Below, piece by piece: positions 11,714-29,196 of a stretch of 64,000 bases of DNA (position 1 is its first letter; every line of letters starts with the position of its first letter). The position numbers and the translations under genes were made by a program. Below the pieces are notes generated by a model. That model saw only the letters and a program-made list of their open reading frames with translations. It was not told where the DNA came from and made no database searches. Origin of the DNA: an uncultured Bacteroidales bacterium (GTDB lineage: Bacteria > Bacteroidota > Bacteroidia > Bacteroidales > UBA7960); NCBI GenBank assembly GCA_964453995.1, contig CAYVQC010000010.1, forward strand, positions 21,509-85,508, read 5' to 3'.

Positions 11714-13717
11714 TTACTTTTTATTTAATCTCTCCAGCACAAAAGCAGATAAGGATGGCAGGTAAAGGCTCAGGACTTCCTTGCCCCCGGAATTTATAAA
11801 TGTAGAATGCCGGAGGGTTTTATCTTGTCGTTCGTGCCCACCAAAGTCTTGGCTGTCGGTATCCAGTACCATACCATAGGTGCCGGCAGTGGCCTCAAAA
11901 GAATAATCAGAGTACGACCGGAAGGGATTAAAGTTGAACACAAAGGTGAATTTACCCCTTTCGAAAATGAGTACCTGGTCAGGGATATTCTGCACTCTGG
12001 GGTAATGAAGTTGTTTTTGGATAATTTTACGCAGTTTAAATAACTTGATCATTTCCCTGTCGAAGAGATTTAAAAACCTGTACCGCAACTGCTCATTGGT
12101 AGCCAGACTCCACTGCCTGCGGGCATAATGATAAGACCAATTATTATGTCGCCCCGGGAAATCTATCCATTCTGGATGACCAAATTCATTACCCATAAAA
12201 TTGAGGTACCCGTTTCCGGCTGTCGCAATGGTAACCAGCCGGATCATCTTGTGTAGTGCGATGCCATTATCAACTACCAGGCTCTGATGATTTACATGCA
12301 TATTGTAATACATCTCTTTATCCATAAGCCAGAAGATGAGCGTTTTATCCCCTACAAGGGCCTGGTCGTGCGATTCGGCGTAGTGTATGGCTTGTTCATC
12401 GGCACGTTTGTTAGACAGGTTGTAATAAATATCGCCCACATGCCAATGCTCAATCTTATTCTCCTTAATAGTTTTGATCCAGAAATCGGGAATACCCATG
12501 GCAAGGCGGTAATCAAAGCCATATCCACCTTTTTCACGGGGGGTAGCAAGGCCTGGCATACCGCTCATCTCTTCAGCCACAGTTATGGCATGAGGGTTTA
12601 CCTGGTGAATGAGCTTATTGGCAAGCTTAAGATAAACTATTGCATCATCATCCTGGTTGCCGTTGTAATACTGGCTGTATTCTGTAAATGAACTTCCAAG
12701 CCCGTGATCGAGGTAAAGCATACTGGTAACCCCGTCAAAACGGTACCCATCGAAACGGTATTCATCAATCCAGAACTTACAGTTGGAAAGTAAAAAGTGC
12801 AGAACCTCGTTTTTGCCATAATCAAAGCACCTGCTGTCCCATGCCGGATGATCACCGCGTGGTCCATTGTGAAAAAACTGGTACAATGTACCGTCGTACC
12901 GGCTGATCCCTTCCACCTCGTTTTTCACTGCGTGCGAATGTACAATATCCATAATCACAAACAATCCCATCCCGTGAGCATCGTCAACAAGGGCTTTCAA
13001 TTCATCGGGGGTGCCAAAGCGCGAAGAGGCAGCAAAAAAATTACTTACATGATATCCAAATGATCCGTAGTAGGGATGCTCCTGGATGGCCATGAGTTGG
13101 ATGGTGTTATAACCTGACTTCTTGATCCCCGGTAAAACATTTTTGCGAAAATTCTCAAAGGAACCTACTTCATAATGTTCGGTTGCCATGCCCACATGCG
13201 CTTCATATACCAGAGGAACGAAGTCCTTTTTTCTTTCAGGTATTTTATTCTTCCAGCTGTAAGGTTTGGCAGGATCCCACACCTGCGCATTAAAAACATG
13301 GGTCTTTTCATCCTGTACCACTCTCCTGGCCCAGGCCGGAACACGTTCACCACTGTTTCCGTTCCAAAAAACATGAAGTTTGTAAAGATCGCCATGCTTA
13401 AGGGTTTCAAGAGGAACTTCAATTTGCCAATTGCCATTACCGATATTGCGGAATACAAATTCTTCCCTGAGCTGCCATTCGCAAAAATCACCCACAAGAT
13501 AGATCTTGGTGGCGTTGGGAGCCCACTCACGCATTATCCAACTCTTTTTCTGCCTGTGCAACCCGTAATACAGGTATCCAACAGCAAAATCACTCAATGT
13601 CTTTTGGTCATTCAACAACTGGGCTTCTTTTTCCTGCGCTCGTCTGATGCGGCCCATTATGGCATCAGCATAGGGTTGCAGGAAAATATCTTTTTCTAGA
13701 AATTCCGGATATTGCAT
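11714..13717 (-). CDS. glgB: 1,4-alpha-glucan branching enzyme (GH13, eukaryote-like subfamily found in Bacteroidota)
   Basis: REWAPNA, YEAHVGM, YYGSFGYHV, MDIVHSHA, FDGYRFDGVTSMLY, AEEMSG, YAESHDQALVGDKT. Confidence 0.95.
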   Translation of the reverse strand: MQYPEFLEKDIFLQPYADAIMGRIRRAQEKEAQLLNDQKTLSDFAVGYLYYGLHRQKKSWIMREWAPNATKIYLVGDFCEWQLREEFVFRNIGNGNWQIEVPLETLKHGDLYKLHVFWNGNSGERVPAWARRVVQDEKTHVFNAQVWDPAKPYSWKNKIPERKKDFVPLVYEAHVGMATEHYEVGSFENFRKNVLPGIKKSGYNTIQLMAIQEHPYYGSFGYHVSNFFAASSRFGTPDELKALVDDAHGMGLFVIMDIVHSHAVKNEVEGISRYDGTLYQFFHNGPRGDHPAWDSRCFDYGKNEVLHFLLSNCKFWIDEYRFDGYRFDGVTSMLYLDHGLGSSFTEYSQYYNGNQDDDAIVYLKLANKLIHQVNPHAITVAEEMSGMPGLATPREKGGYGFDYRLAMGIPDFWIKTIKENKIEHWHVGDIYYNLSNKRADEQAIHYAESHDQALVGDKTLIFWLMDKEMYYNMHVNHQSLVVDNGIALHKMIRLVTIATAGNGYLNFMGNEFGHPEWIDFPGRHNNWSYHYARRQWSLATNEQLRYRFLNLFDREMIKLFKLRKIIQKQLHYPRVQNIPDQVLIFERGKFTFVFNFNPFRSYSDYSFEATAGTYGMVLDTDSQDFGGHERQDKTLRHSTFINSGGKEVLSLYLPSLSAFVLERLNKK

Positions 13718-14992: not shown

Positions 14993-15029
14993 AAAACCGC
15001 AGTTTACCCATAAAGCTGCGGTTTTTTTT
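14993..15029 (+). terminator. Intrinsic terminator
   Basis: AAAACCGCAG-TTTACCCATAAAG-CTGCGGTTTTTTTT. Confidence 0.85.
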
Positions 15030-15246: not shown

Positions 15247-15254
15247 TAAATTTG
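15247..15254 (+). promoter_or_regulatory. -7 element upstream of the cyanophycinase gene
   Basis: TAAATTTG, 77 bp before ATG 15331. Confidence 0.5.
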
Positions 15255-15330: not shown

Positions 15331-16185
15331 ATGGCTAAAACGAAGAAAAATAAAAACAAAGGAAACCTGGTACTGATAGGCGGCGCCGAGGACCGGAAGG
15401 AAGAAAAAATTGTATTAAAAAGCCTTGTAGAGCTCAACCATGCTGAAAATATTGTAGTTATTCCAACGGCAACATTGTATCCTACCGAATGCGGCGAAGA
15501 TTATTTTTATGCCTTCAGGGATCTTGGGGTGAAAAATGTTGAAATATTTGATATCCGTGACAGCCGGCAGGCATCCCATAGCAGCTACCAAAGAAAGCTG
15601 GAAAAGGCAGATATAGTTTTTTTCACAGGGGGAGATCAGGTAAGACTTACACGTATTTTGAACAATACACGCCTTATCGATAATATTTCAAATCGCTTTC
15701 AAAAAGAAGGCCTCACCATAGCGGGTACTTCTGCCGGTGCCTCGGCCGCTGCCAATCCTATGACCTTTGATGGTGATAACCATGGACTAATAAAGGGCTC
15801 GGTAAAATTTGACCGGGGGTTCGGATTTATCGAAAACATTACCATTGATACTCACTTTGTTGCACGCGGTCGACTGGCAAGACTGGCGCAGTTTCTTTGC
15901 CATGGCTACACCCGCAGAGGAATTGGTATCGGTGAAAACACCTCCATTACTATAACCCCCGACAATGTTTTTTATGTAACAGGAACAGGCATTGTTACAG
16001 TCGTTTCCACCGAAGACCTCACTTTTTCCAATTTCGACCAGGTAAGTGAAAATGAAAGGATATCGCTGGATGGTATTCGGTTGGGCTTCTTACAACACGG
16101 TGCAGTTTTTGACATTCATACCTGGAAAACGATCCGGTTTATTAAATCGCAGGGAATATCTTCCCAAATTGAACTCCTGGGCTAA
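15331..16185 (+). CDS. cphB: Cyanophycinase (peptidase S51), cytoplasmic CphB type
   Basis: GNLVLIGGAED, VVIPTA, FFTGGDQ, nucleophile GTSAGA, DTHF..RGRLARL, GIGIGENT; no signal peptide. Confidence 0.9.
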   Translation: MAKTKKNKNKGNLVLIGGAEDRKEEKIVLKSLVELNHAENIVVIPTATLYPTECGEDYFYAFRDLGVKNVEIFDIRDSRQASHSSYQRKLEKADIVFFTGGDQVRLTRILNNTRLIDNISNRFQKEGLTIAGTSAGASAAANPMTFDGDNHGLIKGSVKFDRGFGFIENITIDTHFVARGRLARLAQFLCHGYTRRGIGIGENTSITITPDNVFYVTGTGIVTVVSTEDLTFSNFDQVSENERISLDGIRLGFLQHGAVFDIHTWKTIRFIKSQGISSQIELLG

Positions 16186-16349
16186 CCTCTAGCCGGCCAG
16201 GGGCTTTCAGAAAACCAACCGGCACAGGAAAACTGCCAAAGCAACAAGGTCAATCTCTACCAGGCCGCATCCTACATACAAAAGCTCATTTTAATGCCCT
16301 TTAGGCTTAATTATTTCCGGTAAAGGTTATTTTTTTCGCAAATTTTCCG

Positions 16350-16357
16350 TAGGTTTG
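16350..16357 (+). promoter_or_regulatory. -7 element upstream of the cphA2-like gene
   Basis: TAGGTTTG, 58 bp before ATG 16415. Confidence 0.55.
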
Positions 16358-16414
16358 AATACTGCTCCCATAACTATAGCCTTGCATATTAATCATCACC
16401 AAAACCATAACCAT

Positions 16415-18322
16415 ATGCAAACAAAGGAGAAAGATTTTGATGTAAAGAAGTTTTACTTTTATTTTGGCCCCAATCATTACCTGCCCGCAAAAGCGCTGGT
16501 GTTCAATCTGCATATTGCCCCGGAAGGGCCAGAGGTAGAGTTTTACAAACCCTATATTTTCCATGAATTCCCACAATTGAGTGCCTATAACCTGCAGACG
16601 GTAGCCGACTTGTTTGTGCACACGCTCCTGGAGGTACTTCGTATGGAAATAGACCTCCATGTGAATGAATTCAACATTACCGAGGATGGAGAAGATTACG
16701 TGGTTGCCATGGAATTTCTTGATGATTACACGGCTGAAGATGCCGTGGTTTTGGTTAGCGACTGGTTTAAATCCATCAATGAGGGAAAAAACGAAGATTT
16801 CAATTTCAGGAAAAAATTTAAACTCCTTAAAGGTGTTTTCGATCAATCCCTGTTGGGGGGGCCTACACTCTATGCACTGGTAGAAACAGCAATCAAAAAC
16901 GATATTCCCGTTTTTTTCATTGAAGAGGAAAACCAGTTTCAGTGGGGCTATGGCATCAGGCAATTGCGGGGCCGCTCTACAACCTTCCATACCGACAGCA
17001 TAAAAGACACTGAATTTACTATGTATAAAGACATGGTAACAGAGTTTTTACACATGTGTGGCTTTCCTACTCCGGCAGGACGAAACTGCTTTACTGCTGA
17101 AGAGGCCCTGCTGGAAACAAAAAAACTTGGATACCCGGTAGTGGTAAAGCCCGTAGCCGGACACAAAGGAGTGGGCGTTACCACCGGAATAATGCATGAA
17201 GCTGAAGTAAAACTTGCCTTCCAGTCGATAGTGGAAGCCGCCGAAAAAGAAGGTGCTTTTTTTGATGGCGCTATCGTTCAGCAACACATCCAGGGGCACG
17301 ACCATCGCCTGTTAACCATTGATGGCAAGTTTGCTGCTGCACTGAAACGCATCCCAGCCTTTGTGGAAGGGAATGGACAGGATACCATTGAAACACTTAT
17401 AGCTGCAGAAAACAAAAAAGAGATAAGACGCGACGACGCTCGTTCCCCTCTGGCAAAGATAAATATTGACAAAGATCTTATAGACTACCTGCTTGCTCAA
17501 AACCTGAACTTAAGCAGTATACCAGCCAAAGGGCAACAGGTTTATCTGAGAAGGGTGGCGAATATTTCTGCAGGGGGAATTTCTATCAATGTAACTGATT
17601 CTATCCATCCTAAAAATGCAGAACTGGCAGAAACGATTGCCTCCTTTTTTAATGTAAAATGCCTGGGAATAGATGTCCTCACCGACGACATATCCCTGCC
17701 CTGGAGTGAAGGAAATTTCGGTATCATTGAGATAAATGCAGGCCCTGGTGTATTTATGCACCTGGCACCAGCTTATGGAGGTAGCATTAATGTTCCTGAA
17801 AAAATTTTGCTATCCCATTTTGGAAAACACGACCAGGCAAGAATCCCCATTATTGCCGGAAACCATATCACACAAAGTTTTTTAAATGAATTGCTCAGTG
17901 AACTGAACAGCATCCGCAAAGGAATATTTACAGGCTCTTTGATTGCCGAAGGAATCTTCTTCAACAACCGGTATTTTTATAAGAACAATCACCACGACCA
18001 GAATGTGAAGATCATACTTCGACATCCCAAAACAGAATTTGCCATCTTCCATCACACGAAAGATGAAATTTATGATTACGGATTTTTCCACCAGGGAGCC
18101 GACCTTATTATTCTTGATCAGCCCAACTGGGCCGAAGAAAGCATGAAAAACTTGCTGTTGCCCGGCGGCTATGTGGTGGAAGTTTCTGAATCGGAAATTG
18201 TCCTTACATCGAACAGCCATACCCTCAACAGCGTTACTTTTGCAACCGGGGATAAAGAATCTGCGTTACTGCAAATCATAAAACCTTTATTGCCCCAACT
18301 GATTGAAAAATATTCCTCCTGA
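16415..18322 (+). CDS. cphA2: Cyanophycin synthetase 2-like ATP-grasp ligase (635 aa)
   Basis: N domain (GPNHY..ALVFN); GGPTLYAL; QWGYG; ATP-grasp GYPVVVKPVAGHKGVGVT, GHDHRLL, LRRVANISAGG, GIIEINAGPGVFMH; short degenerate Mur-like domain, ARIPIIAGN, lacking the GTNGKTT P-loop of CphA1. Confidence 0.85.
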   Translation: MQTKEKDFDVKKFYFYFGPNHYLPAKALVFNLHIAPEGPEVEFYKPYIFHEFPQLSAYNLQTVADLFVHTLLEVLRMEIDLHVNEFNITEDGEDYVVAMEFLDDYTAEDAVVLVSDWFKSINEGKNEDFNFRKKFKLLKGVFDQSLLGGPTLYALVETAIKNDIPVFFIEEENQFQWGYGIRQLRGRSTTFHTDSIKDTEFTMYKDMVTEFLHMCGFPTPAGRNCFTAEEALLETKKLGYPVVVKPVAGHKGVGVTTGIMHEAEVKLAFQSIVEAAEKEGAFFDGAIVQQHIQGHDHRLLTIDGKFAAALKRIPAFVEGNGQDTIETLIAAENKKEIRRDDARSPLAKINIDKDLIDYLLAQNLNLSSIPAKGQQVYLRRVANISAGGISINVTDSIHPKNAELAETIASFFNVKCLGIDVLTDDISLPWSEGNFGIIEINAGPGVFMHLAPAYGGSINVPEKILLSHFGKHDQARIPIIAGNHITQSFLNELLSELNSIRKGIFTGSLIAEGIFFNNRYFYKNNHHDQNVKIILRHPKTEFAIFHHTKDEIYDYGFFHQGADLIILDQPNWAEESMKNLLLPGGYVVEVSESEIVLTSNSHTLNSVTFATGDKESALLQIIKPLLPQLIEKYSS

Positions 18323-18351
18323 AAACATAAACCTAAAACAACCTTACATAC

Positions 18352-19512
18352 ATGTTATTAATTAAGAATGCCAATCTGTATGCTCCTGAAAAATCAGGAA
18401 AAAAAGATATCCTTATAGCAGGAAACCAAATAATTGCTGTTGAAGACCAAATTGAAGTTCCCAAAGGTATTGATGTAAAAGTATTGGACATTACAGGCTT
18501 ACGGGTAATACCAGGTTTAATAGACGCTCATGTGCACATTGCAGGTGCAGGAGGTGAAGGTGGCCCGGCGAGCAGAACCCCCGAAATGCAGTTGAGCCAT
18601 ATGCTGGAAGCTGGCGTTACCACGGTAATCGGTTGCCTTGGCACAGATGGCCTCACGCGCAGTCTTGAATCTGTGCTCATGAAGGTGAAAGCACTGAGAC
18701 AGGAAGGTGTAAGTGCATGGATGTTTACCGGTTCTTACCAGGTTCCTACCCCTACCATCATGGGTGATGTTGGAAAAGACATTGCACTCATTGAAGAAGT
18801 AATTGGTGTAGGCGAGATTGCCATATCCGATCACCGCAGTTCCTTCCCATCCGCCCACGAGCTGGCACGCCTGGCGGCACATGCAAGGGTTGGCGGTATG
18901 CTGGGCGGCAAATGCGGCATAGTAAATATTCACATGGGTGATGCCAAAAGTCCCTTTAAACCATTGTATGAAATTGTGGCGATGAGTGAATTAAACTTTA
19001 ATCAATTCCTCCCAACACATATCAACCGTAACACCTACATTTTTGAAGATGCAAAAACCTACGGTAAAAAAGGATGCATTGATATCACGGCAAGTTCTTA
19101 CCCCTATTTCCCGCAATATGAAATAAAACCGTCTAAAGCAATCGCTCAGCTGCTGAAAGCAGATGTACCCATAAAAAACATTACCATGACCAGCGATGGT
19201 TGTGGCTCATTGCCCCAGTTCGATGAAAACGGTAAGCTCGAAAAACTTGAAATGGGCTACCCCAAATCAGTATTTGATGAAATTAAGGATGCGGTAACAC
19301 AGGAAAAACTAAAATTACAGGATGCCCTGAAGGTTGCCACCAGCAATATTGCCGACATCTTGTGGCTGAGAAAGAAAGGGCGGATTGCCCCAAAAATGGA
19401 CGCCGACCTGGTAGTAATCGACAAGGAATACAACATCGTACACATGGTGGCAATGGGAAATCTTATGGTAGAAAATTCGAAAATGCTCAAAAAAGGCAGC
19501 TACGAAAAATAG
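18352..19512 (+). CDS. iadA: Isoaspartyl dipeptidase (beta-aspartyl peptidase, amidohydrolase)
   Basis: PGLIDAHVHIAGAGGEGGPASRTPE, GCLGTDG, TGSYQVP, GEIAISDHRSS, HMGD, PTHINR, TSDGCGS. Confidence 0.93.
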   Translation: MLLIKNANLYAPEKSGKKDILIAGNQIIAVEDQIEVPKGIDVKVLDITGLRVIPGLIDAHVHIAGAGGEGGPASRTPEMQLSHMLEAGVTTVIGCLGTDGLTRSLESVLMKVKALRQEGVSAWMFTGSYQVPTPTIMGDVGKDIALIEEVIGVGEIAISDHRSSFPSAHELARLAAHARVGGMLGGKCGIVNIHMGDAKSPFKPLYEIVAMSELNFNQFLPTHINRNTYIFEDAKTYGKKGCIDITASSYPYFPQYEIKPSKAIAQLLKADVPIKNITMTSDGCGSLPQFDENGKLEKLEMGYPKSVFDEIKDAVTQEKLKLQDALKVATSNIADILWLRKKGRIAPKMDADLVVIDKEYNIVHMVAMGNLMVENSKMLKKGSYEK

Positions 19513-19567
19513 CAGGAATCCGCCCGGTTTCCCGTTTGCTACCCCGTTTCGCTATAAAACATATTTC

Positions 19568-20518
19568 ATGAGCAATTCTTTCAAAATACACATATTAGGT
19601 TCGTCTGCAGCTATACCAACCTCCCTGAGGCACACTTCAGCACAGCTGGTACATTATTACAACAAATACATGCTTATTGACTGTGCCGAGGGCGCCCAGA
19701 TACAAATGCGCCGGATGCACCTTCCCCTGATGAAAATCAATCATATATTCATTTCGCACCTTCACGGTGATCATTACCTGGGCCTTCCAGGCTTGATCTT
19801 TACCATGCACCTGCTGGGCCGCAAAAGGAAACTACATGTATATTCCCCCGAAGGACTCAAAGAGATTATTGAGTTGCAATACAGCATTTCCAGGCTTGAA
19901 CCCGGTTTTGAAATAGAATATCATATTATTGGTCATGGCAAACAACTCCTGTATGAAGACAACGACCTAAGGGTAGAATCCATTGAAATGATGCACCGGT
20001 TACCTGCCTATGGTTTTCTTTTCGAAGAAAGACCAGGGCTGCGCAATATTATTAAAGAAGCCATAAGCAAATATGATATCCCGGTAGAGAAAATGCAAAA
20101 ACTCAAATCGGGAAAAGACCTGCAACTCCCCGATGGCACTGTAATTGACAACAAACAAATCACAACACCTCCGTCACCACCAAGGATTTATGCCTGCTGT
20201 TCTGATACAGGTTTTACGAACCAGTATATCGATCAGATTAAAAATGCCGACCTGCTGTACCATGAGGCTACTTTTTTGCATGACAAAGCTGATATAGCAA
20301 AGGAAAAAACCCACTGCACAGCTTTGCAGGCCGCAACCATTGCACGTGAAGCAGGAGTAAAGAGGCTCATGCTGGGCCATTATTCGGCGCGCTACGATGA
20401 ACTTTCACTTTTTGTGGAAGAAGCTCAGAAAGTATTTCAAAATACCATCCTGGCAGAAGAAGGCTCTACAATAGACATCCCCGCGGCCAAAACCCAAAAC
20501 TTTGAACAACAGGACTAA
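19568..20518 (+). CDS. rnz: Ribonuclease Z
   Basis: ILGSSAAIP, DCAEG, SHLHGDH, SDT, HEATF, GHYSARY. Confidence 0.93.
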   Translation: MSNSFKIHILGSSAAIPTSLRHTSAQLVHYYNKYMLIDCAEGAQIQMRRMHLPLMKINHIFISHLHGDHYLGLPGLIFTMHLLGRKRKLHVYSPEGLKEIIELQYSISRLEPGFEIEYHIIGHGKQLLYEDNDLRVESIEMMHRLPAYGFLFEERPGLRNIIKEAISKYDIPVEKMQKLKSGKDLQLPDGTVIDNKQITTPPSPPRIYACCSDTGFTNQYIDQIKNADLLYHEATFLHDKADIAKEKTHCTALQAATIAREAGVKRLMLGHYSARYDELSLFVEEAQKVFQNTILAEEGSTIDIPAAKTQNFEQQD

Positions 20519-22333: not shown

Positions 22334-23185
22334 TCATCCATTTTCCCGTTTGAGTTCCTCCAGTCGCATCTTAATTTTTTTAACAATATACTGGTCTTTT
22401 ACCTCTGTTAGTAGTTTCTCCAGTATCATACTATCATGCAGTTTTGAAATAGCTCTTTTGCGTACTTCAAAATCATTGTCTTTACGGATGACCTCCGCTA
22501 AAACCTCTTGATCATCAATTTTCGCTACAGCCTTGTTCCGTACATAATAATCCGAGTCCTGGAAGGCAATCTGCCTGATGACTTCTTCATCAAAAATTTT
22601 CTCCAAGGCAAGAGCCCTTACATAGTAATCATTATCGTTTGTTGCAATATAAATCAGGGTTTGCTGGTCAGTTAGCTTCTTTAACGCATCTGATCTTACA
22701 TAAAAATCTTCATGATGCAATGCAATTTTCTTAAGTATATGCTGAGCTTCAATGGCTTCTACCGCAGTTTTCATAATATCGCGGTCAGAGATTTGCTCTA
22801 TAAGTCTTTCAAGCACATCGTCATTTTTTATTTTTGCCAAAGCATCCTTACAGATATAATAGTCTTCCTGGCTCTTCAATACAATATGGGCCAATACCTC
22901 AGGATCAGAAATTTTACGCACTGCTGCGACCCTAACATAATAATCGCTATCGTTTAATGCAATTTGCATCAATACATCAGCATCATTGATTTTTTCAGTG
23001 GCTGTTTGCCTTACATAATAATCCGGATCGTTGGCAGCTACTTTTCTGAGGATTTCCTGATCGTCTATTTCCTTCAAAGCATCTACCCGATCATAATAAT
23101 CTGTTGCATTAAAAACCTTATCAATCAACTCTTTCATTTTATCTTTAGGAATCGGGTCGTTGGGGTTTGTAGGGCTTTCTGACAT
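22334..23185 (-). CDS. Alpha-solenoid protein of about ten 26-aa HEAT/LRV-like repeats
   Basis: Repeated DYYVRxxAxxKIxDxxVLxxIAxxD; ATG at 23185 (MSESPTNP) preferred. Confidence 0.75.
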   Translation of the reverse strand: MSESPTNPNDPIPKDKMKELIDKVFNATDYYDRVDALKEIDDQEILRKVAANDPDYYVRQTATEKINDADVLMQIALNDSDYYVRVAAVRKISDPEVLAHIVLKSQEDYYICKDALAKIKNDDVLERLIEQISDRDIMKTAVEAIEAQHILKKIALHHEDFYVRSDALKKLTDQQTLIYIATNDNDYYVRALALEKIFDEEVIRQIAFQDSDYYVRNKAVAKIDDQEVLAEVIRKDNDFEVRKRAISKLHDSMILEKLLTEVKDQYIVKKIKMRLEELKRENG

Positions 23186-23456
23186 GGCTGGAAGTTTTAT
23201 CGATGAACGACTGTGAAAAGGATCAACAGGGCATAAAAATAGTGAAAAAAATAGGATTTCGACTGCATCGGGTTGTTTTTTCCTTAGGCAAAACACTAAA
23301 TTCTCATCTTATTCTTAATTTAAAAATCTAATTTACATATCGTAATTTCCTGTATCACTCGTGTTTTAATAAGGTTCTGATCAATGAGTCTGATGTATTT
23401 TAACATGACAATTATCTATTTTGTAGTTTTTTTTTTGCTTCTAACAAAATATTTTC

Positions 23457-23904: not shown

Positions 23905-26900
23905 ATGGAGAGAAGAACCCTACTACTAATTTTTTGCTTATGGTTTTATGCGGGCCTTACAAGTGGACAGCCGGTTACCATCAGTAAAAGTGATTCTAAA
24001 GGCACAAAGGCCGAACTTAAAAACTCTGTCAACCCAAATCAGCACAGTAGAACCCAATTCTTTACTGACAATTTGAAAGATTCAGAGACCTTTTTCACGG
24101 AAGATTTCGATGGAGATGTTTTTCCACCAACAGGCTGGAGTATTATTGCGACCCACCCTGATTCGGATTCCAACTGGCATGAAGCAACCATTGAGGAAAA
24201 TTCTTTTGCAGAGGTATTGTACACCGATGCCCTGATGATGGATGAGTGGATCATTAGTCCTTCCATTGATCTCTCATCTATGGTAGCCGGATTTATTTCC
24301 TTCCGGTTTCTGACCAGCTACTACTGGCTGGTAGACCCTTTTGATGGTGCTAACCTTATGCTTAAAGTATCCACCGACGGTGGAACAACATGGGAACAGA
24401 TATGGTTTGAAGAGGACTTTGGAACCTTTTTAGATTATACGTGGTATACCGTTACACTTCCTATTGACGACTATGCAGGCGAAAGCAATGTAAAAATTGC
24501 CTTTCACTTTCTGGGAAACGATGGGGCACAAACCAATGTGGATGATATAACAGTTTTTTCGGCTGACTCCTACCAGTTAACCATGCTTGACCCCATCGGT
24601 GACGGAAGTGTAATTCCGGCTCCTGGTGTGCACGAGTATTTTGAAAACACTGAGGTAGCTTTGGGTGCAAACCCGGACTTTGGATATACCTTCAATTCAT
24701 GGAATCAGGGAGATGTAACCGACACGAATGCTTCCATTACAACAATTGTAATGGATCAGGACAAAACAGTTCAGGCTACTTTTACCCAATTGAACCTGGA
24801 TCTGCTTTGGCATCAGTATACTTATGGGGAAAGTGCAATCAATAGCGCTGTAATTAATGAAGACACTGAATATGAGGTAGCTGACAATTTTTCCAGCTCA
24901 GCCATTGAAAGCATTACAAAAGTAGTAGTACATGGATTACCCAGTGGAATTGCCAGCGGACCCCAAAGAGTCCTTACCTTAAGGTTTTACAGCCCTACCA
25001 AATCGGGCGAACCCGACTGGGAGAACCCTGTCTCCGAGCAAACAATTACTGCTAAAGCATATTATGTAGAACCCCTTTCCTGGAATCCTTCTTTCAATAT
25101 ATTTAAATATGAACTTGATTTATTAACACCAGTGGATTTACAGGAAGGCTGGATCTCGGTACAGGCCAATGATACCGGATCATTTTACTGGTTAGCTGCA
25201 GAGGAAGGAACCGGAGATGGTAATGCATGGCAAAGAATTGTAAATGCTGATGAAGACCCCAATGAAAATCTGACCATGGATTTTATGCTGGAGGTGTGGG
25301 GGGAAGGAGCTGAAATTGCTCCCGATTGCGTGCTTTATATTTCTCCCGATGATGAAGCAATTGATCAGCCAACAGATATTTCCTTATCCTGGCAGGCAAG
25401 CCCCAATGCCACTGGTTACATGCTCTACTTTGGTGAAACCCTTCCTGCTACAGGTATAGATGTTGGCAATGTAACAAGTTATAGTACATCGCTGGAATTC
25501 AGTACAACCTATTTCTGGAAGGTGGTACCTTACAATTTCATTGGCTCAGCGGAAGGTTGCCCTGCATATAGCTTCACCACTATTGATGACCCTACACAGC
25601 TTCTCCCCTGGGCTGAAGACTTCACAGGACTGGAAGCCGGAGCAATACCCACAGGCTGGAACAGAACCCATAGCAATTGGGGTGCTTTTGACGGTAATAA
25701 TGCAGGTGGTACATCTCCTGAAATGAGATTTTTTTATTCACCTTCTGCTACCGACGTTTTTAGATTGGTCTCTCCTCCGCTGCAAAGCACAGCCAAAGTA
25801 GATTATCGGCTCACATTCAAGCACCAGATTGATTTCTATGATACACCTGCAAGCTATAAAGTACAATTCTCAAACGATGGTGAAACATGGGAAACCATCT
25901 GGGAAATTATAGATCCTGTGGAAAACGTAGGACCTGAGACTGTTACAATAAATCTGAACGAATTGAATGGTATATTTTACCTGGCATGGGTATTTGATGG
26001 ATACTCATTCAATACTGATGCGTGGCATGTAGATGATATTGCAGTGGAAGAAATACCCACCGAGCCTGTTTTCTCCATCGTTCCTGATCCTGAGGGTGGA
26101 GAATTTGATTTTGGTATTATTAACATGGGAGAACAATCTGATCCTGAAAACTTTACTGTTACCAATACCGGTGATGGAGTTCTTACCATAAACTCCGTAA
26201 CTATTACCGGCGAAGATGCAGCTGATTTCATCCTCACCCTCGATCCTGAGGCTGATACCGGGCTGGGTGCAGGAGAATCCCTCTCATTCAGCATTGTATT
26301 TGCACCTGATATAGCTGGTGCGAAAACCGCTCAACTCAATGTATCTTATGATACTGGCACAGGTTTAAAAGATCAAACATATTTGCTGGTGCTGTTGGGT
26401 GAGGCTATAGACCCAACAATCTTGCCACCTTTCGAGGTTAATTTTGATCCCTTCCCACCTGCCAACTGGACAAGGCCATATGGTATTCTTGACGTTGAAA
26501 CGGAATTTATTACTCCCATTGGATTAAACTGGGTCAGCAGCAATTTTGGTAATAATAGCTCTAATCCAAAAGCCACAAAAATAAACCTCTATGTTTCATC
26601 CAATCCTATTTACCGGTGGTTCATGAGCCCACCCATCGATATGACTGCCAAAGGTGACGAATACCAGCTTTCATTCGATCTGGCAGTGACCGGTTATGCC
26701 AATCAAACTCCGGATCAATTGGGACCTGAAGACTATTTTGCCGTGGTTGTTTCAAGGGATGGTGGTCAAACATGGTCATCCGACGATGTCATTTTTGAGT
26801 TGTCAGGAGCCGATTCGGATGAGATCACTCCCGGCGGGCAAACGTTTACTATAGACCTTGACGCCATTACGGGTACTATTAAACTGGGTTTCTATGCACA

Positions 26901-29196
26901 AAGGCACTCAGGAACAAATCCCGATATTGATCTTCATCTGGGCAATGTCCTGGTTAGGGTCAAACCTACGGAGCCTATTTTTTCCATAAACCCTGATTCC
27001 TGGGACTTTGGGCAGGTTGATATTGGATTTGAATCCCCCGTAAAAGAGTTTACCATTACCAATACGGGATCTGGAGTTCTTAAGATTGAACCCGAGAATG
27101 TATACCTGGAAGGAGAAGATCAATATGCATTCGGGCTTTTCAATTTTGATGAAGTGGTATCTCTGGGCGCCAATGAATCAGCAACTCTAAGTATAATGTT
27201 TATGCCCGATGATACCAGGATATTCAATGTTAATCTTGTTATAGACGATGATTTAGCAAAAACAGTACATTATATACCTATCACAGGAGAAGGAATTTCA
27301 AAACCCTCCGGTTCAACCTGCGAAAATCCTTACCTGCTAAGCTTACCGGTAATTGATTACGTAGATAATACAGAAGATTACGGAGATAATTATTCAAATG
27401 ACTGGGTATCTCCCCCCACCAGCTATCTGAATGGTAATGACTTTGTTGCGAAGTTTACCCTTGCTGAAACCGGTTATCTCAGTGGCAGTGTTGCAGGAAG
27501 CTGGACAGGACTCATTATTGTTGAAAATTGCCCTGATCCTGTTAATGCTGCAGAGGTTCTGGCCCTTGCTACAGGATCAAACGGGGGATCTTTTTCCAAT
27601 GTAACATTTGAAGATGGCACCTATTATGCAATCGTTTCAACCTACCCCTCTCCACAATTTACCGATTTTACGCTAAATCTTTCCTTTGAGCCGCTACCTG
27701 ACTGTATTGCGCCCAATAACCTAACGGCTGACAATATTACCACAACAGGTGCCTCTCTTGGGTGGACAGCACTGGGAAGTGAAACCTCGTGGAACGTTGA
27801 ATGGGGGTTGGCCGGTTTCGTCCAGGGCGAAGGAACCCTTGCAGCAGGAGTTACTAATCCTTATGTGCTTTCCGGACTAGATTCCGGTACCATTTATGAG
27901 TTTTACGTTCAGGCGGTTTGCAACGGCGAAACAAGTACGTGGAGTGGACCCTTTGCCTTCAGCACACTGTGCAATCCCGTTGATTTACCGTGGGTAGAAA
28001 ACTTTGATGGAGTAACCGCTCCCCAAGTACCTGCGTGCATAAGTGTAATTAACAACAACGGTGACAATTATACATGGGAAACCTCAACCCAGGATCCATA
28101 CTCTTCACCAAACTCAATGGCTATTAGGTGGAATTCTTCTTTAGCTATGGATGACTGGTTCTTCTCTCCCGGTTTAAACCTTATCGCCGGAGAGACTTAT
28201 GAGGTAAAGTTTTATTATTCAGTAGCGGGTATAAATTATCCCGAAAAACTAAAGGTAATGTGGGGCGATGAACCAAACGCTTCTGGCATGACAGGTGGCA
28301 TCCTTTGGAATAACGACGACCTTACCAACACAGAATATCTCGAGGCCACAGCAACTTTCACCCCTGGTGAATCAGGTATCTATTATGTTGGATGGCATGG
28401 CTACAGCGATGCTGACCAGTTTAGAATTTATGTTGATGATATCCAAATTGATGTGGCACCTCCTGCAGGCATTACCCTCGACCTGAAAGTAATTCTGGAA
28501 GGAGCTTTCAGTCCTGGCAAAAGTGAAATGATGCATACAATCATCAATGATGTATTACCTCTTGACCAACCCTTTGCACCCGACCTGCCCTACTATGGCA
28601 ACAACAACCCGGAATGGTACTATGAAGGTGATGAAGCAGTTGACATTATGCCGGAAAATGTTGTTGACTGGGTCCTCATCGAACTACGTGATGCTGCAGC
28701 ACCATCAGAAGCATATACCAGCACTGTGATCTCTCAAAAGGCTGCACTGCTTCTCAATACCGGAGAGATTGTATCTACAGACCTTACTATGCCTGTATTC
28801 GATGTTGAAATAAATGAAGGGCTCTATGTTGTGATTTATCATCGGAACCATCTTGCCGTCATGTCAGCAGAAGCACTTACAGAAGCAGGAGGCATCTACA
28901 GTTGGGATTTTACCCAGTCATTAGACCGGGCCTTTCATCTTTACAACAGATCTTCATACGGAGAAGGGCACAAGGAACTTGGCGAGGGTATCTTCGGAAT
29001 GTATGGTGGTGATGGCGATGCCAACGGACAAATCCAGGCACAGGATAAAAATAACGTCTGGAACCTGCAGTCCGGTTTTGCCGGCTATTTCCCTGCCGAC
29101 TTTGATCTTAATGGTCAGGTGCAGGCACAGGATAAAAACAATATTTGGAATGCAAACAGTGGAATTGGCACTGCCGTTCCTGGTGATTCCAAATAG
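23905..29196 (+). CDS. Giant secreted acidic multidomain adhesin-like protein: cleaved-adhesin/choice-of-anchor-J-like domains, InlB-B-like repeat, Ig/ASH-like and FN3 domains, C-terminal dockerin-like module
   Basis: Signal peptide; EDFDG..FPPTGW, DEWIISP, DDWFFSPG; DFG...FTVTNTGDGVL; CIAPNNL...YEFYVQAVC; two Ca-loop repeats DGDANGQIQAQD and DFDLNGQVQAQD. Confidence 0.8.
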   Translation: MERRTLLLIFCLWFYAGLTSGQPVTISKSDSKGTKAELKNSVNPNQHSRTQFFTDNLKDSETFFTEDFDGDVFPPTGWSIIATHPDSDSNWHEATIEENSFAEVLYTDALMMDEWIISPSIDLSSMVAGFISFRFLTSYYWLVDPFDGANLMLKVSTDGGTTWEQIWFEEDFGTFLDYTWYTVTLPIDDYAGESNVKIAFHFLGNDGAQTNVDDITVFSADSYQLTMLDPIGDGSVIPAPGVHEYFENTEVALGANPDFGYTFNSWNQGDVTDTNASITTIVMDQDKTVQATFTQLNLDLLWHQYTYGESAINSAVINEDTEYEVADNFSSSAIESITKVVVHGLPSGIASGPQRVLTLRFYSPTKSGEPDWENPVSEQTITAKAYYVEPLSWNPSFNIFKYELDLLTPVDLQEGWISVQANDTGSFYWLAAEEGTGDGNAWQRIVNADEDPNENLTMDFMLEVWGEGAEIAPDCVLYISPDDEAIDQPTDISLSWQASPNATGYMLYFGETLPATGIDVGNVTSYSTSLEFSTTYFWKVVPYNFIGSAEGCPAYSFTTIDDPTQLLPWAEDFTGLEAGAIPTGWNRTHSNWGAFDGNNAGGTSPEMRFFYSPSATDVFRLVSPPLQSTAKVDYRLTFKHQIDFYDTPASYKVQFSNDGETWETIWEIIDPVENVGPETVTINLNELNGIFYLAWVFDGYSFNTDAWHVDDIAVEEIPTEPVFSIVPDPEGGEFDFGIINMGEQSDPENFTVTNTGDGVLTINSVTITGEDAADFILTLDPEADTGLGAGESLSFSIVFAPDIAGAKTAQLNVSYDTGTGLKDQTYLLVLLGEAIDPTILPPFEVNFDPFPPANWTRPYGILDVETEFITPIGLNWVSSNFGNNSSNPKATKINLYVSSNPIYRWFMSPPIDMTAKGDEYQLSFDLAVTGYANQTPDQLGPEDYFAVVVSRDGGQTWSSDDVIFELSGADSDEITPGGQTFTIDLDAITGTIKLGFYAQRHSGTNPDIDLHLGNVLVRVKPTEPIFSINPDSWDFGQVDIGFESPVKEFTITNTGSGVLKIEPENVYLEGEDQYAFGLFNFDEVVSLGANESATLSIMFMPDDTRIFNVNLVIDDDLAKTVHYIPITGEGISKPSGSTCENPYLLSLPVIDYVDNTEDYGDNYSNDWVSPPTSYLNGNDFVAKFTLAETGYLSGSVAGSWTGLIIVENCPDPVNAAEVLALATGSNGGSFSNVTFEDGTYYAIVSTYPSPQFTDFTLNLSFEPLPDCIAPNNLTADNITTTGASLGWTALGSETSWNVEWGLAGFVQGEGTLAAGVTNPYVLSGLDSGTIYEFYVQAVCNGETSTWSGPFAFSTLCNPVDLPWVENFDGVTAPQVPACISVINNNGDNYTWETSTQDPYSSPNSMAIRWNSSLAMDDWFFSPGLNLIAGETYEVKFYYSVAGINYPEKLKVMWGDEPNASGMTGGILWNNDDLTNTEYLEATATFTPGESGIYYVGWHGYSDADQFRIYVDDIQIDVAPPAGITLDLKVILEGAFSPGKSEMMHTIINDVLPLDQPFAPDLPYYGNNNPEWYYEGDEAVDIMPENVVDWVLIELRDAAAPSEAYTSTVISQKAALLLNTGEIVSTDLTMPVFDVEINEGLYVVIYHRNHLAVMSAEALTEAGGIYSWDFTQSLDRAFHLYNRSSYGEGHKELGEGIFGMYGGDGDANGQIQAQDKNNVWNLQSGFAGYFPADFDLNGQVQAQDKNNIWNANSGIGTAVPGDSK

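Follow-up and report, generated by a model that had tools for sequence, protein, structure and literature searches.

CphA2 is described in print as restricted to cyanobacteria that have CphA1. What, then, would a CphA2-type gene do in a heterotroph of the Bacteroidales, and from what would its product build a polymer? We addressed these questions with the window (the whole stretch of DNA that was analyzed, 64,000 nucleotides from an uncultured Bacteroidales bacterium; genome G000). No intact CphA1 was found in this host, a departure from the host trait given in print.

The cphA2 gene and its product

The gene cphA2 (16415..18322, + strand) encodes a 635-amino-acid (aa) ATP-grasp enzyme of the CphA2 family (P0001), a predicted beta-Asp-Arg polymerase by sequence, fold, and tree. 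Its length follows from the open reading frame starting at ATG 16415. An alternative TTG start 60 nucleotides upstream would give 655 aa, and close homologues of P0001 are 631 to 636 aa long. The N domain (residues 1-146; 16415..16852, +; boundaries mapped from Stanieria CphA2) is without the Cx19HxxEH hydrolytic motif, which was absent from this domain in 60 of 60 CphA2 rows. By residue alignment, the G (ATP-grasp) domain (residues 147-476; 16853..17842, +) has an intact active site, formed by T151, E200, K205, K245, R298, R312, D352, R379, N383, S385, E439, N441, and G445; F447 stands where CphA1 has R458. The rest of the protein (residues 477-635; 17843..18319, +) aligns, and is predicted to fold, as a truncated M-core remnant without the P-loop and the lid, and it ends about 240 aa short of the C terminus of Synechocystis CphA1.

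A preliminary description of this DNA had claimed an N-G-short C-terminal layout of 635 aa and the loss of the Mur-ligase P-loop. The layout was borne out by the sequence and the predicted fold, and comparison with Synechocystis CphA1 confirmed that the M-domain P-loop is replaced in P0001. The motifs quoted there are present as well (GGPT at residue 148, KPVAGHKG at 245, EINAGPGVFMH at 439, and RIPIIAGNHIT at 476).

TAnnTTTG boxes, which we take to be the Bacteroidota -7 promoter consensus, can be read in the 229-bp gap before cphA2 (16350..16357, +) and before cphB (15247-15254, +). The motif is short and common by chance, and a promoter scan gave 8 sites versus 10.2 in shuffles, which is no excess. 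No RNA run was listed among the sequencing runs that contain this DNA.

Gene cluster and native origin

The preliminary description left two neighboring genes, cphB and iadA, unmentioned. Upstream lies cphB (15331..16185, +), encoding a cyanophycinase (P0002; TIGR02069, 210.6 bits; cut-off, 126.6) with no signal peptide by eye, which implies an internal polymer. Downstream, starting 29 bp past the cphA2 stop, is iadA (18352..19512, +), encoding an isoaspartyl dipeptidase (P0003; TIGR01975, 495.3 bits; cut-off, 331.25). A terminator-like 13-bp hairpin (14993..15025, +) closes the upstream gene and may mark the 5' edge of the cluster, a weak feature, since such sites numbered 10 in the scan and 5.8 +/- 2.8 in shuffled sequence. 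The order cphB-cphA2-iadA-rnz was kept in 8 of 8 same-genus stretches (one ends at the contig end), and the wider neighborhood is common to G009 and G011.

This synteny supports the earlier claim of a native Bacteroidota gene, as do the GC content (43.3%, versus 44.0% genome-wide), a contig from a second study that bridges positions 15864-19800 with 2 substitutions and 0 indels, and the nearest named homologues, which are titled Bacteroidales or Bacteroidetes (up to 74%). A cyanobacterial chimera or a recent transfer from a cyanobacterium was rejected on the phylogeny (see below), the second-study contig, and the genus synteny. At least 89% of the sampled words were found in four runs from two studies, labeled microbial mat metagenome, one of which may itself be the source of this DNA.

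Elsewhere in the window, positions 23905-29196 (+) encode a 1,763-aa secreted-looking multidomain protein with adhesin-like repeat modules and, at the C terminus, an Asp/Asn-rich repeat (all labels assigned by eye). A tandem short-repeat protein with a DxDYYVR-like unit (22334-23296, -) is conserved beside the cluster in genus relatives. A glycogen-branching-enzyme-like gene (by eye; 11714-13717, -) lies 1.6 kb from the cyanophycin cluster, and this arrangement is the same in G009 and G011.

P0001 belongs to the CphA2 family

In sequence searches, the best PDB matches of P0001 were the CphA2 structures 7TA5 (475.6 bits; E = 2e-141) and 8FXH (434.6 bits), whereas CphA1 structures scored 198 to 213 bits and GshAB scored 98 to 107 bits. 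The predicted model (pLDDT, 90.8; 67-row alignment) was likewise closest to 7TA5 (TM, 0.85/0.92; 41% identity), with CphA1 chains ranking 6 to 15. P0001 is under all NCBIfam cut-offs. Its score against the CphA1 family TIGR02068 (321.6 bits; cut-off, 850) and the absent P-loop show that it is not a CphA1. GshF/GshAB was rejected: NF002688 matched at 170.4 bits (cut-off, 425) over the ATP-grasp part only, without the glutamate-cysteine ligase domain that the family requires. A GshF or RimK identity was also rejected, with at most 107 bits by sequence and a TMq of at most 0.46 by fold.

The careful tree was built from 320 columns of the G domain and 46 of 119 rows, with four ATP-grasp fragments, taken as GshF-like by length, as the outgroup. 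P0001 fell inside a single CphA2 clade of 30 rows (support, 100/99), apart from CphA1, so the phylogenetic check that had been proposed for the assignment came out in its favor. The clade splits into a cyanobacterial-type group (100/98) and a non-cyanobacterial sister group that includes P0001 (95/97). A quick tree of 92 rows gave the same split between CphA2 and CphA1; there, the support for the non-cyanobacterial group was only 88, and P0136 was outside it.

The mutational data in the available part of a preprint identify seven important CphA2 residues, T163, D212, R308, D362, R389, N393, and S395 (bioRxiv 2023.04.15.537035). Six of them are identical in P0001, and D212 is replaced by E200; CphA1 bears E or D at this position. 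In CphA1, Arg458 binds the alpha-carboxyl of free Asp (PMC9427784, available sections). R occupied this position in 19 of 19 CphA1 rows and in 0 of 24 cyanobacterial-type CphA2 rows, and F or Y did so in all 36 non-cyanobacterial CphA2 rows. P0001 therefore shares with CphA2 the loss of this residue for binding free Asp. All 24 cyanobacterial-type rows and 19 of the 36 non-cyanobacterial rows were found by two G-site patterns, and conservation of the patterns there is by construction; the remaining 17 came from whole-protein searches. The catalytic motifs are complete in P0001 and are near-invariant also in the rows not selected by motif. At chain-binding positions, the non-cyanobacterial clade differs from cyanobacterial CphA2 by H208->I, D212->E, and A453->G, and T202 is variable. 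Since no CphA2 structure shows the incoming dipeptide, as far as the accessible text of the preprint goes (bioRxiv 2023.04.15.537035), the substrate of P0001 is extrapolated across a sequence identity of about 40%. The CphA2-type identity itself is borne out by sequence, predicted fold, tree, and active-site residues, and, judged from its sequence, P0001 very probably has polymerase activity.

CphA2 is widespread outside cyanobacteria

The occurrence of CphA2 outside cyanobacteria, as first described from this locus, is real, but it is not a one-off: P0001 is a member of a wide sister clade. We detected CphA2 in 29 of 400 genomes of the order (672 to 884 bits), in 12 of the 60 near relatives searched, not counting three deleted copies, and in 11 of 22 genus members, this genome counted; it was not found in the other 11. 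A phylum-wide sample of 400 highly complete genomes yielded no CphA2-level match, the top score being 225 bits. The 80 top-scoring loci, out of at least 594 in GTDB, had titles that included Cloacimonadota, Muiribacteriota, Fermentibacteria, Eisenbacteria, CSSED10-310, and Spirochaetia, as well as Negativicutes, Holophagales, SAR324, Chlorobiota, and Cytophagales. The non-cyanobacterial clade holds records titled with about ten phyla besides its own. Nearly all of these records are metagenome bins, which may be why surveys of complete genomes missed them.

Degenerate CphA2-derived proteins have eroded ATP-grasp motifs (P0128, P0130, P0140, and P0143), internally deleted copies occur in G025, G027, and G035, and L024, L025, and L027 are listed with eroded or internally deleted CphA2-derived proteins. 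Several Bacteroidales genomes carry two CphA2 copies (G489, G497, G581, G692, G724, G787, and G816). Cyanobacterial-type CphA2 was found in L201 (a 1,370-aa open frame), L207, L214, L215, L217, and L199, in records titled Geminicoccaceae, Competibacteraceae, Planctobacterium marinum (isolate), and Actinomycetota; some of these may be mis-binned. Family f48 (e.g., G425, G353, and G361) has up to three ATP-grasp proteins per genome, of 550 to 700 aa and with 105 to 157 bits against P0001, that are neither CphA2 nor full CphA1.

A CphA1-derived partner with an intact hydrolytic site

The sole other CphA-like gene found in G000 is cphA1* (contig C21, 8653-11373; L009:7654-10374). It encodes a 906-aa protein (P0123) with 716 bits against TIGR02068 (cut-off, 850), which we refer to, with its relatives (CphA1*), as the pseudo-synthetase. 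With a genome completeness of 88%, an intact cphA1 could be unassembled. P0123 is without K220, H267, R323, N394, S396, ExN, G456, N497, R561, D585, H586, and H748 but keeps Cx19HxxEH with H57, R70, and E87. In CphA1, this N-domain site cuts cyanophycin into primers, and CphA2 is without it (PMC9262961, in the part available). Going by these residues, P0123 likely acts as an endo-cyanophycinase.

We compared 34 pseudo-synthetases, from 34 of 41 CphA2-positive genomes, with 34 intact CphA1 proteins. In the other seven genomes, no pseudo-synthetase was found, it was a fragment, or it was fetched later; four rows from CphA2-negative genomes were kept out of both groups. The residues H57, C59, R70, H79, E82, and H83 were retained in all 34 pseudo-synthetases, and the full motif was present in 30 of 34 intact CphA1 proteins. 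R323, G456, and N497 were lost in every pseudo-synthetase, R561 was retained in 4, and R100 was replaced by K throughout (34/34). More than half (19/34) are short, lidless forms. Domain identities were 0.60 (N), 0.48 (G), and 0.40 (M core), compared to 0.58, 0.60, and 0.58, respectively, for intact CphA1 (n = 34). The pseudo-synthetases form one clade nested in CphA1 (100/100 in the careful tree). In six forms of 449 to 512 aa, about 240 aa of the G domain are deleted and the N site is intact (P0274, P0280, P0283, P0284, P0286, and L174:8874-10409). The one in L174 directly follows cphB-cphA2, and a pseudo-synthetase gene adjoins the cphA2 cluster in L104, L108, L114, L144, L148, L174, and L203. 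A stand-alone N-domain gene in G699 was discarded, as it proved to be cut by the contig end. Five pseudo-synthetases exceed the TIGR02068 cut-off and would be called normal synthetases in annotation.

In the order sample, the pseudo-synthetase was present in 26 of 29 CphA2-positive genomes (a 27th ends at the contig end) versus 1 of 371 CphA2-negative genomes, counts that are descriptive because related genomes are not independent samples. Intact CphA1 was found in 4 of these 400 genomes, all CphA2-negative, with only two to three candidates scored per genome. With up to 15 candidates each, no intact CphA1 was found in any of the 40 other CphA2-positive Bacteroidales genomes, many of them >95% complete. 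The pairing has exceptions in the genus: G005 (95% complete) has CphA2 without a pseudo-synthetase, and three members have the reverse. In genus member G021 (L026 and L040), cphA1 is intact and paired with cphB, and no CphA2 was found; in this single case, the pseudo-synthetase is without the N-site motif. Outside the Bacteroidales, L138, L139, L140, and L152 have intact CphA1 beside CphA2. In L140 (6971-15675), cphA2, iadA, a pseudo-synthetase gene whose M site is complete, and an intact cphA1 stand side by side, possibly a snapshot of the duplication that gave the pseudo-synthetase. The gene pepE (NF003642, above cut-off) directly precedes cphA1* on C21, and this link recurs in at least nine loci from relatives.

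A candidate uptake locus

On contig C8 (L010:1741-9797), genes for a SusC protein, a SusD-like protein, a PKD-like lipoprotein, a lipoprotein cyanophycinase, and a YfcC-like permease lie in one run. SusC (TIGR04056, 868 bits; cut-off, 368) and the cyanophycinase (TIGR02069, 168.8 bits; cut-off, 126.6; lipobox-like start read by eye) pass their family cut-offs. The permease scored 371 bits, under its family cut-off of 500, and the labels SusD-like and PKD-like were given by position and look. This is a candidate cyanophycin uptake locus that could supply dipeptide; it is common in the genus, both with and without CphA2.

Of 30 loci, 14 have a lipoprotein cyanophycinase next to a permease. All 14 belong to the host's family, and 8 of them were in genus members without detected CphA2. 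A close orthologue of the C8 lipoprotein was present in 8 of 11 CphA2-positive genomes in the family and in 2 of 29 outside it. These counts do not support an uptake locus that travels with CphA2. In L175, permease, cyanophycinases, and cphA2 are in a single cluster. Cyanophycin scavenging is, then, a reasonable interpretation for this genus but not for the clade as a whole. On contig C5 (33056-33961), an Asparaginase_2 family gene (PF01112, 366 bits) possibly encodes a second isoaspartyl peptidase of the IaaA type.

Proposed pathway and alternatives

We favor, with a probability of roughly 0.6, the reading that P0001 polymerizes ready-made beta-Asp-Arg into cyanophycin and that the host's sole CphA1 is only a chain cutter. 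The acyl-phosphate chemistry of CphA2, the making of primers by the N site, and the steps catalyzed by CphB and IadA are established knowledge. In the pathway we propose, the C8 lipoprotein cyanophycinase would cut environmental cyanophycin, and the YfcC-like permease would import the dipeptide. CphA2 would then phosphorylate the chain-end carboxylate with ATP and add one dipeptide, at one ATP per unit. The zinc site in the N domain of the pseudo-synthetase, a role suggested by motif retention, would cut chains into primers and new ends, or alternatively might open granules. Finally, CphB and then IadA, both recognized at the family level, would release dipeptide and then Asp and Arg. Some CphA2 enzymes are said to be primer independent through a Ser where P0001 has Thr199 (our literature search for such a mutation of CphA2 gave no match); if so, primer supply would be less needed.

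The idea that the substrate is a dipeptide rather than free Asp and Arg is strengthened by the genome's only CphA1 having lost its synthetic sites. De novo cyanophycin synthesis is, with high probability, missing from this genome, and an external supply of dipeptide for CphA2 is probable. The more unusual part of the system is the pseudo-synthetase partner elsewhere in the genome, not CphA2 itself.

Four other explanations deserve weight. The same polymerase chemistry could act on another or a mixed beta-Asp-X pool (e.g., beta-Asp-Lys or isoaspartyl peptides of damaged protein) and yield a cyanophycin-like polymer. In its favor are the three positions near the chain-binding site at which the clade consistently differs from cyanobacterial CphA2, the promiscuity of IadA enzymes even in cyanophycin clusters, and the position of pepE before cphA1* in this genome and several relatives. 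However, the Arg-binding position is still acidic (E200 in P0001; E215 in CphA1), the two cyanophycinases score above the TIGR02069 cut-off, and the pseudo-synthetase retains its cyanophycin-binding N-site residues, so we consider this unlikely.

About as improbable, or slightly more so, is a purely catabolic or decaying cluster that yields no storage polymer, with P0001 serving to bind granules or to ligate an unrelated substrate. Decay is seen in the degenerate paralogues (P0128, P0130, P0140, and P0143), the deleted copies in G025, G027, and G035, and the 11 of 22 genus members in which CphA2 was not found. It is hard to reconcile with the complete catalytic motifs of P0001, which are conserved beyond the motif-selected rows, and with a cyanophycinase whose lack of a signal peptide implies an internal polymer.

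A two-enzyme de novo route, in which the pseudo-synthetase makes the dipeptide, at a remodeled G site or a live M site, for CphA2 to polymerize with no scavenging, seems improbable here. Outside the genus, 24 to 25 of 34 pseudo-synthetases retain K220, K261, R309, ExN, and mostly R458, and the Asp pocket is remodeled uniformly (R323->L/V and G456->D in 34/34; S396->R/K in 23/34). Two retain all nine M-site residues checked, two more differ solely by D585E, and the close uptake orthologue is missing from most of those genomes. Yet neither this genome nor any of the 8 genus relatives examined retains K220 or ExN in the pseudo-synthetase, and its M site is eroded in all of them; six forms are without the G domain, and a bulky residue at position 396 kills CphA1 (S396W; PMC9427784, available sections). 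The route may apply to other families, but scarcely to this genome. We also rejected complementary halves, with a dead G and a live M site in the pseudo-synthetase and a live G site in CphA2, for this genome, because its M site is eroded too; the idea may hold for 4 of the 34 relatives.

The least probable explanation, ordinary recycling as in cyanobacteria, with an intact cphA1 missing from the assembly and CphA2 repolymerizing only CphB products, would fit the 88% completeness, the intact cphA1 of G021, and the CphA1-CphA2 pairs of some other phyla but not the 0 of 40 other CphA2-positive Bacteroidales genomes with intact CphA1 or the lack of detected CphA2 in G021.

A broader and speculative proposal, doubtful as it stands, is that the Bacteroidales took the three-site synthetase apart. 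CphA2 would be the sole polymerase, and the pseudo-synthetase would be a primer maker whose remodeled ATP-grasp site joins Asp and Arg in most Bacteroidales families. The basis for such a new two-enzyme route is that ATP-binding residues persist in most pseudo-synthetases outside the genus, whose Asp pocket has been altered in a uniform manner. Scavenging from mat cyanobacteria would have replaced it in the genus, and CphA2 would be an old family rather than a cyanobacterial specialty.

Significance and comparison with known systems

An intact CphA2 in a Bacteroidales heterotroph is in our view real, and it overturns the printed restriction of CphA2 to cyanobacteria with CphA1. It is part of a hitherto undescribed form of cyanophycin metabolism, in which the synthetase partner would be left with cutting alone. 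The finding suggests that some heterotrophs bank a nitrogen polymer made by other organisms, in the form of dipeptide units, and spend one ATP per unit rather than two. The pseudo-synthetases are natural tests of the primer-making N-domain site, in proteins left with that site alone, and the clade offers a pool of CphA2 enzymes about 40% identical to the studied ones, useful for modified cyanophycins. In the literature searched, we found no published account of the non-cyanobacterial CphA2 clade or of the pseudo-synthetases; the supplementary trees of earlier papers may already include CphA2 from outside the cyanobacteria. One earlier hint is a genome note that likens the residue makeup of Bacillus horikoshii proteins to that of CphA2 (PMC5532821, in the part available). 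CphA2 is the label for a second adjacent synthetase gene in PMC5178258, and it is unmentioned in PMC10687191.

P0001 resembles the CphA2 enzymes of Gloeothece citriformis (7TA5) and Stanieria sp. (8FXH/8FXI) in length, N-G-truncated-M layout, and predicted fold, and it shares with cyanobacterial CphA2 the tested G-site residues, the absence of the N-domain hydrolytic motif, and the absence of R458. Cyanobacterial CphA2 is, like P0001, often encoded near a cphB. GshF/GshAB and RimK-type ligases share the ATP-grasp fold with P0001, at far lower scores. P0123 is like CphA1 (Synechocystis 7LG5/7TXV and Trichodesmium 7WAC-F) in its three-domain length, its complete Cx19HxxEH, and its nesting in CphA1. 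It is unlike CphA1 in having lost the Asp-adding and Arg-adding site residues, and among its relatives, either the lid is gone or the G domain is largely deleted. In CphA1, hydrolysis and polymerization cannot be regulated apart (PMC9262961, in the part available), whereas here the two activities would sit on separate genes. Much as proposed for this host, the utilization locus of Bacteroidales strain L21-Spi-D4 has a cyanophycinase, a transporter, and an isoaspartyl dipeptidase for scavenging (as summarized in PMC10206079). Unlike in that strain, a polymerase is added here, so that dipeptide brought in from outside could go into storage and not only be cleaved.
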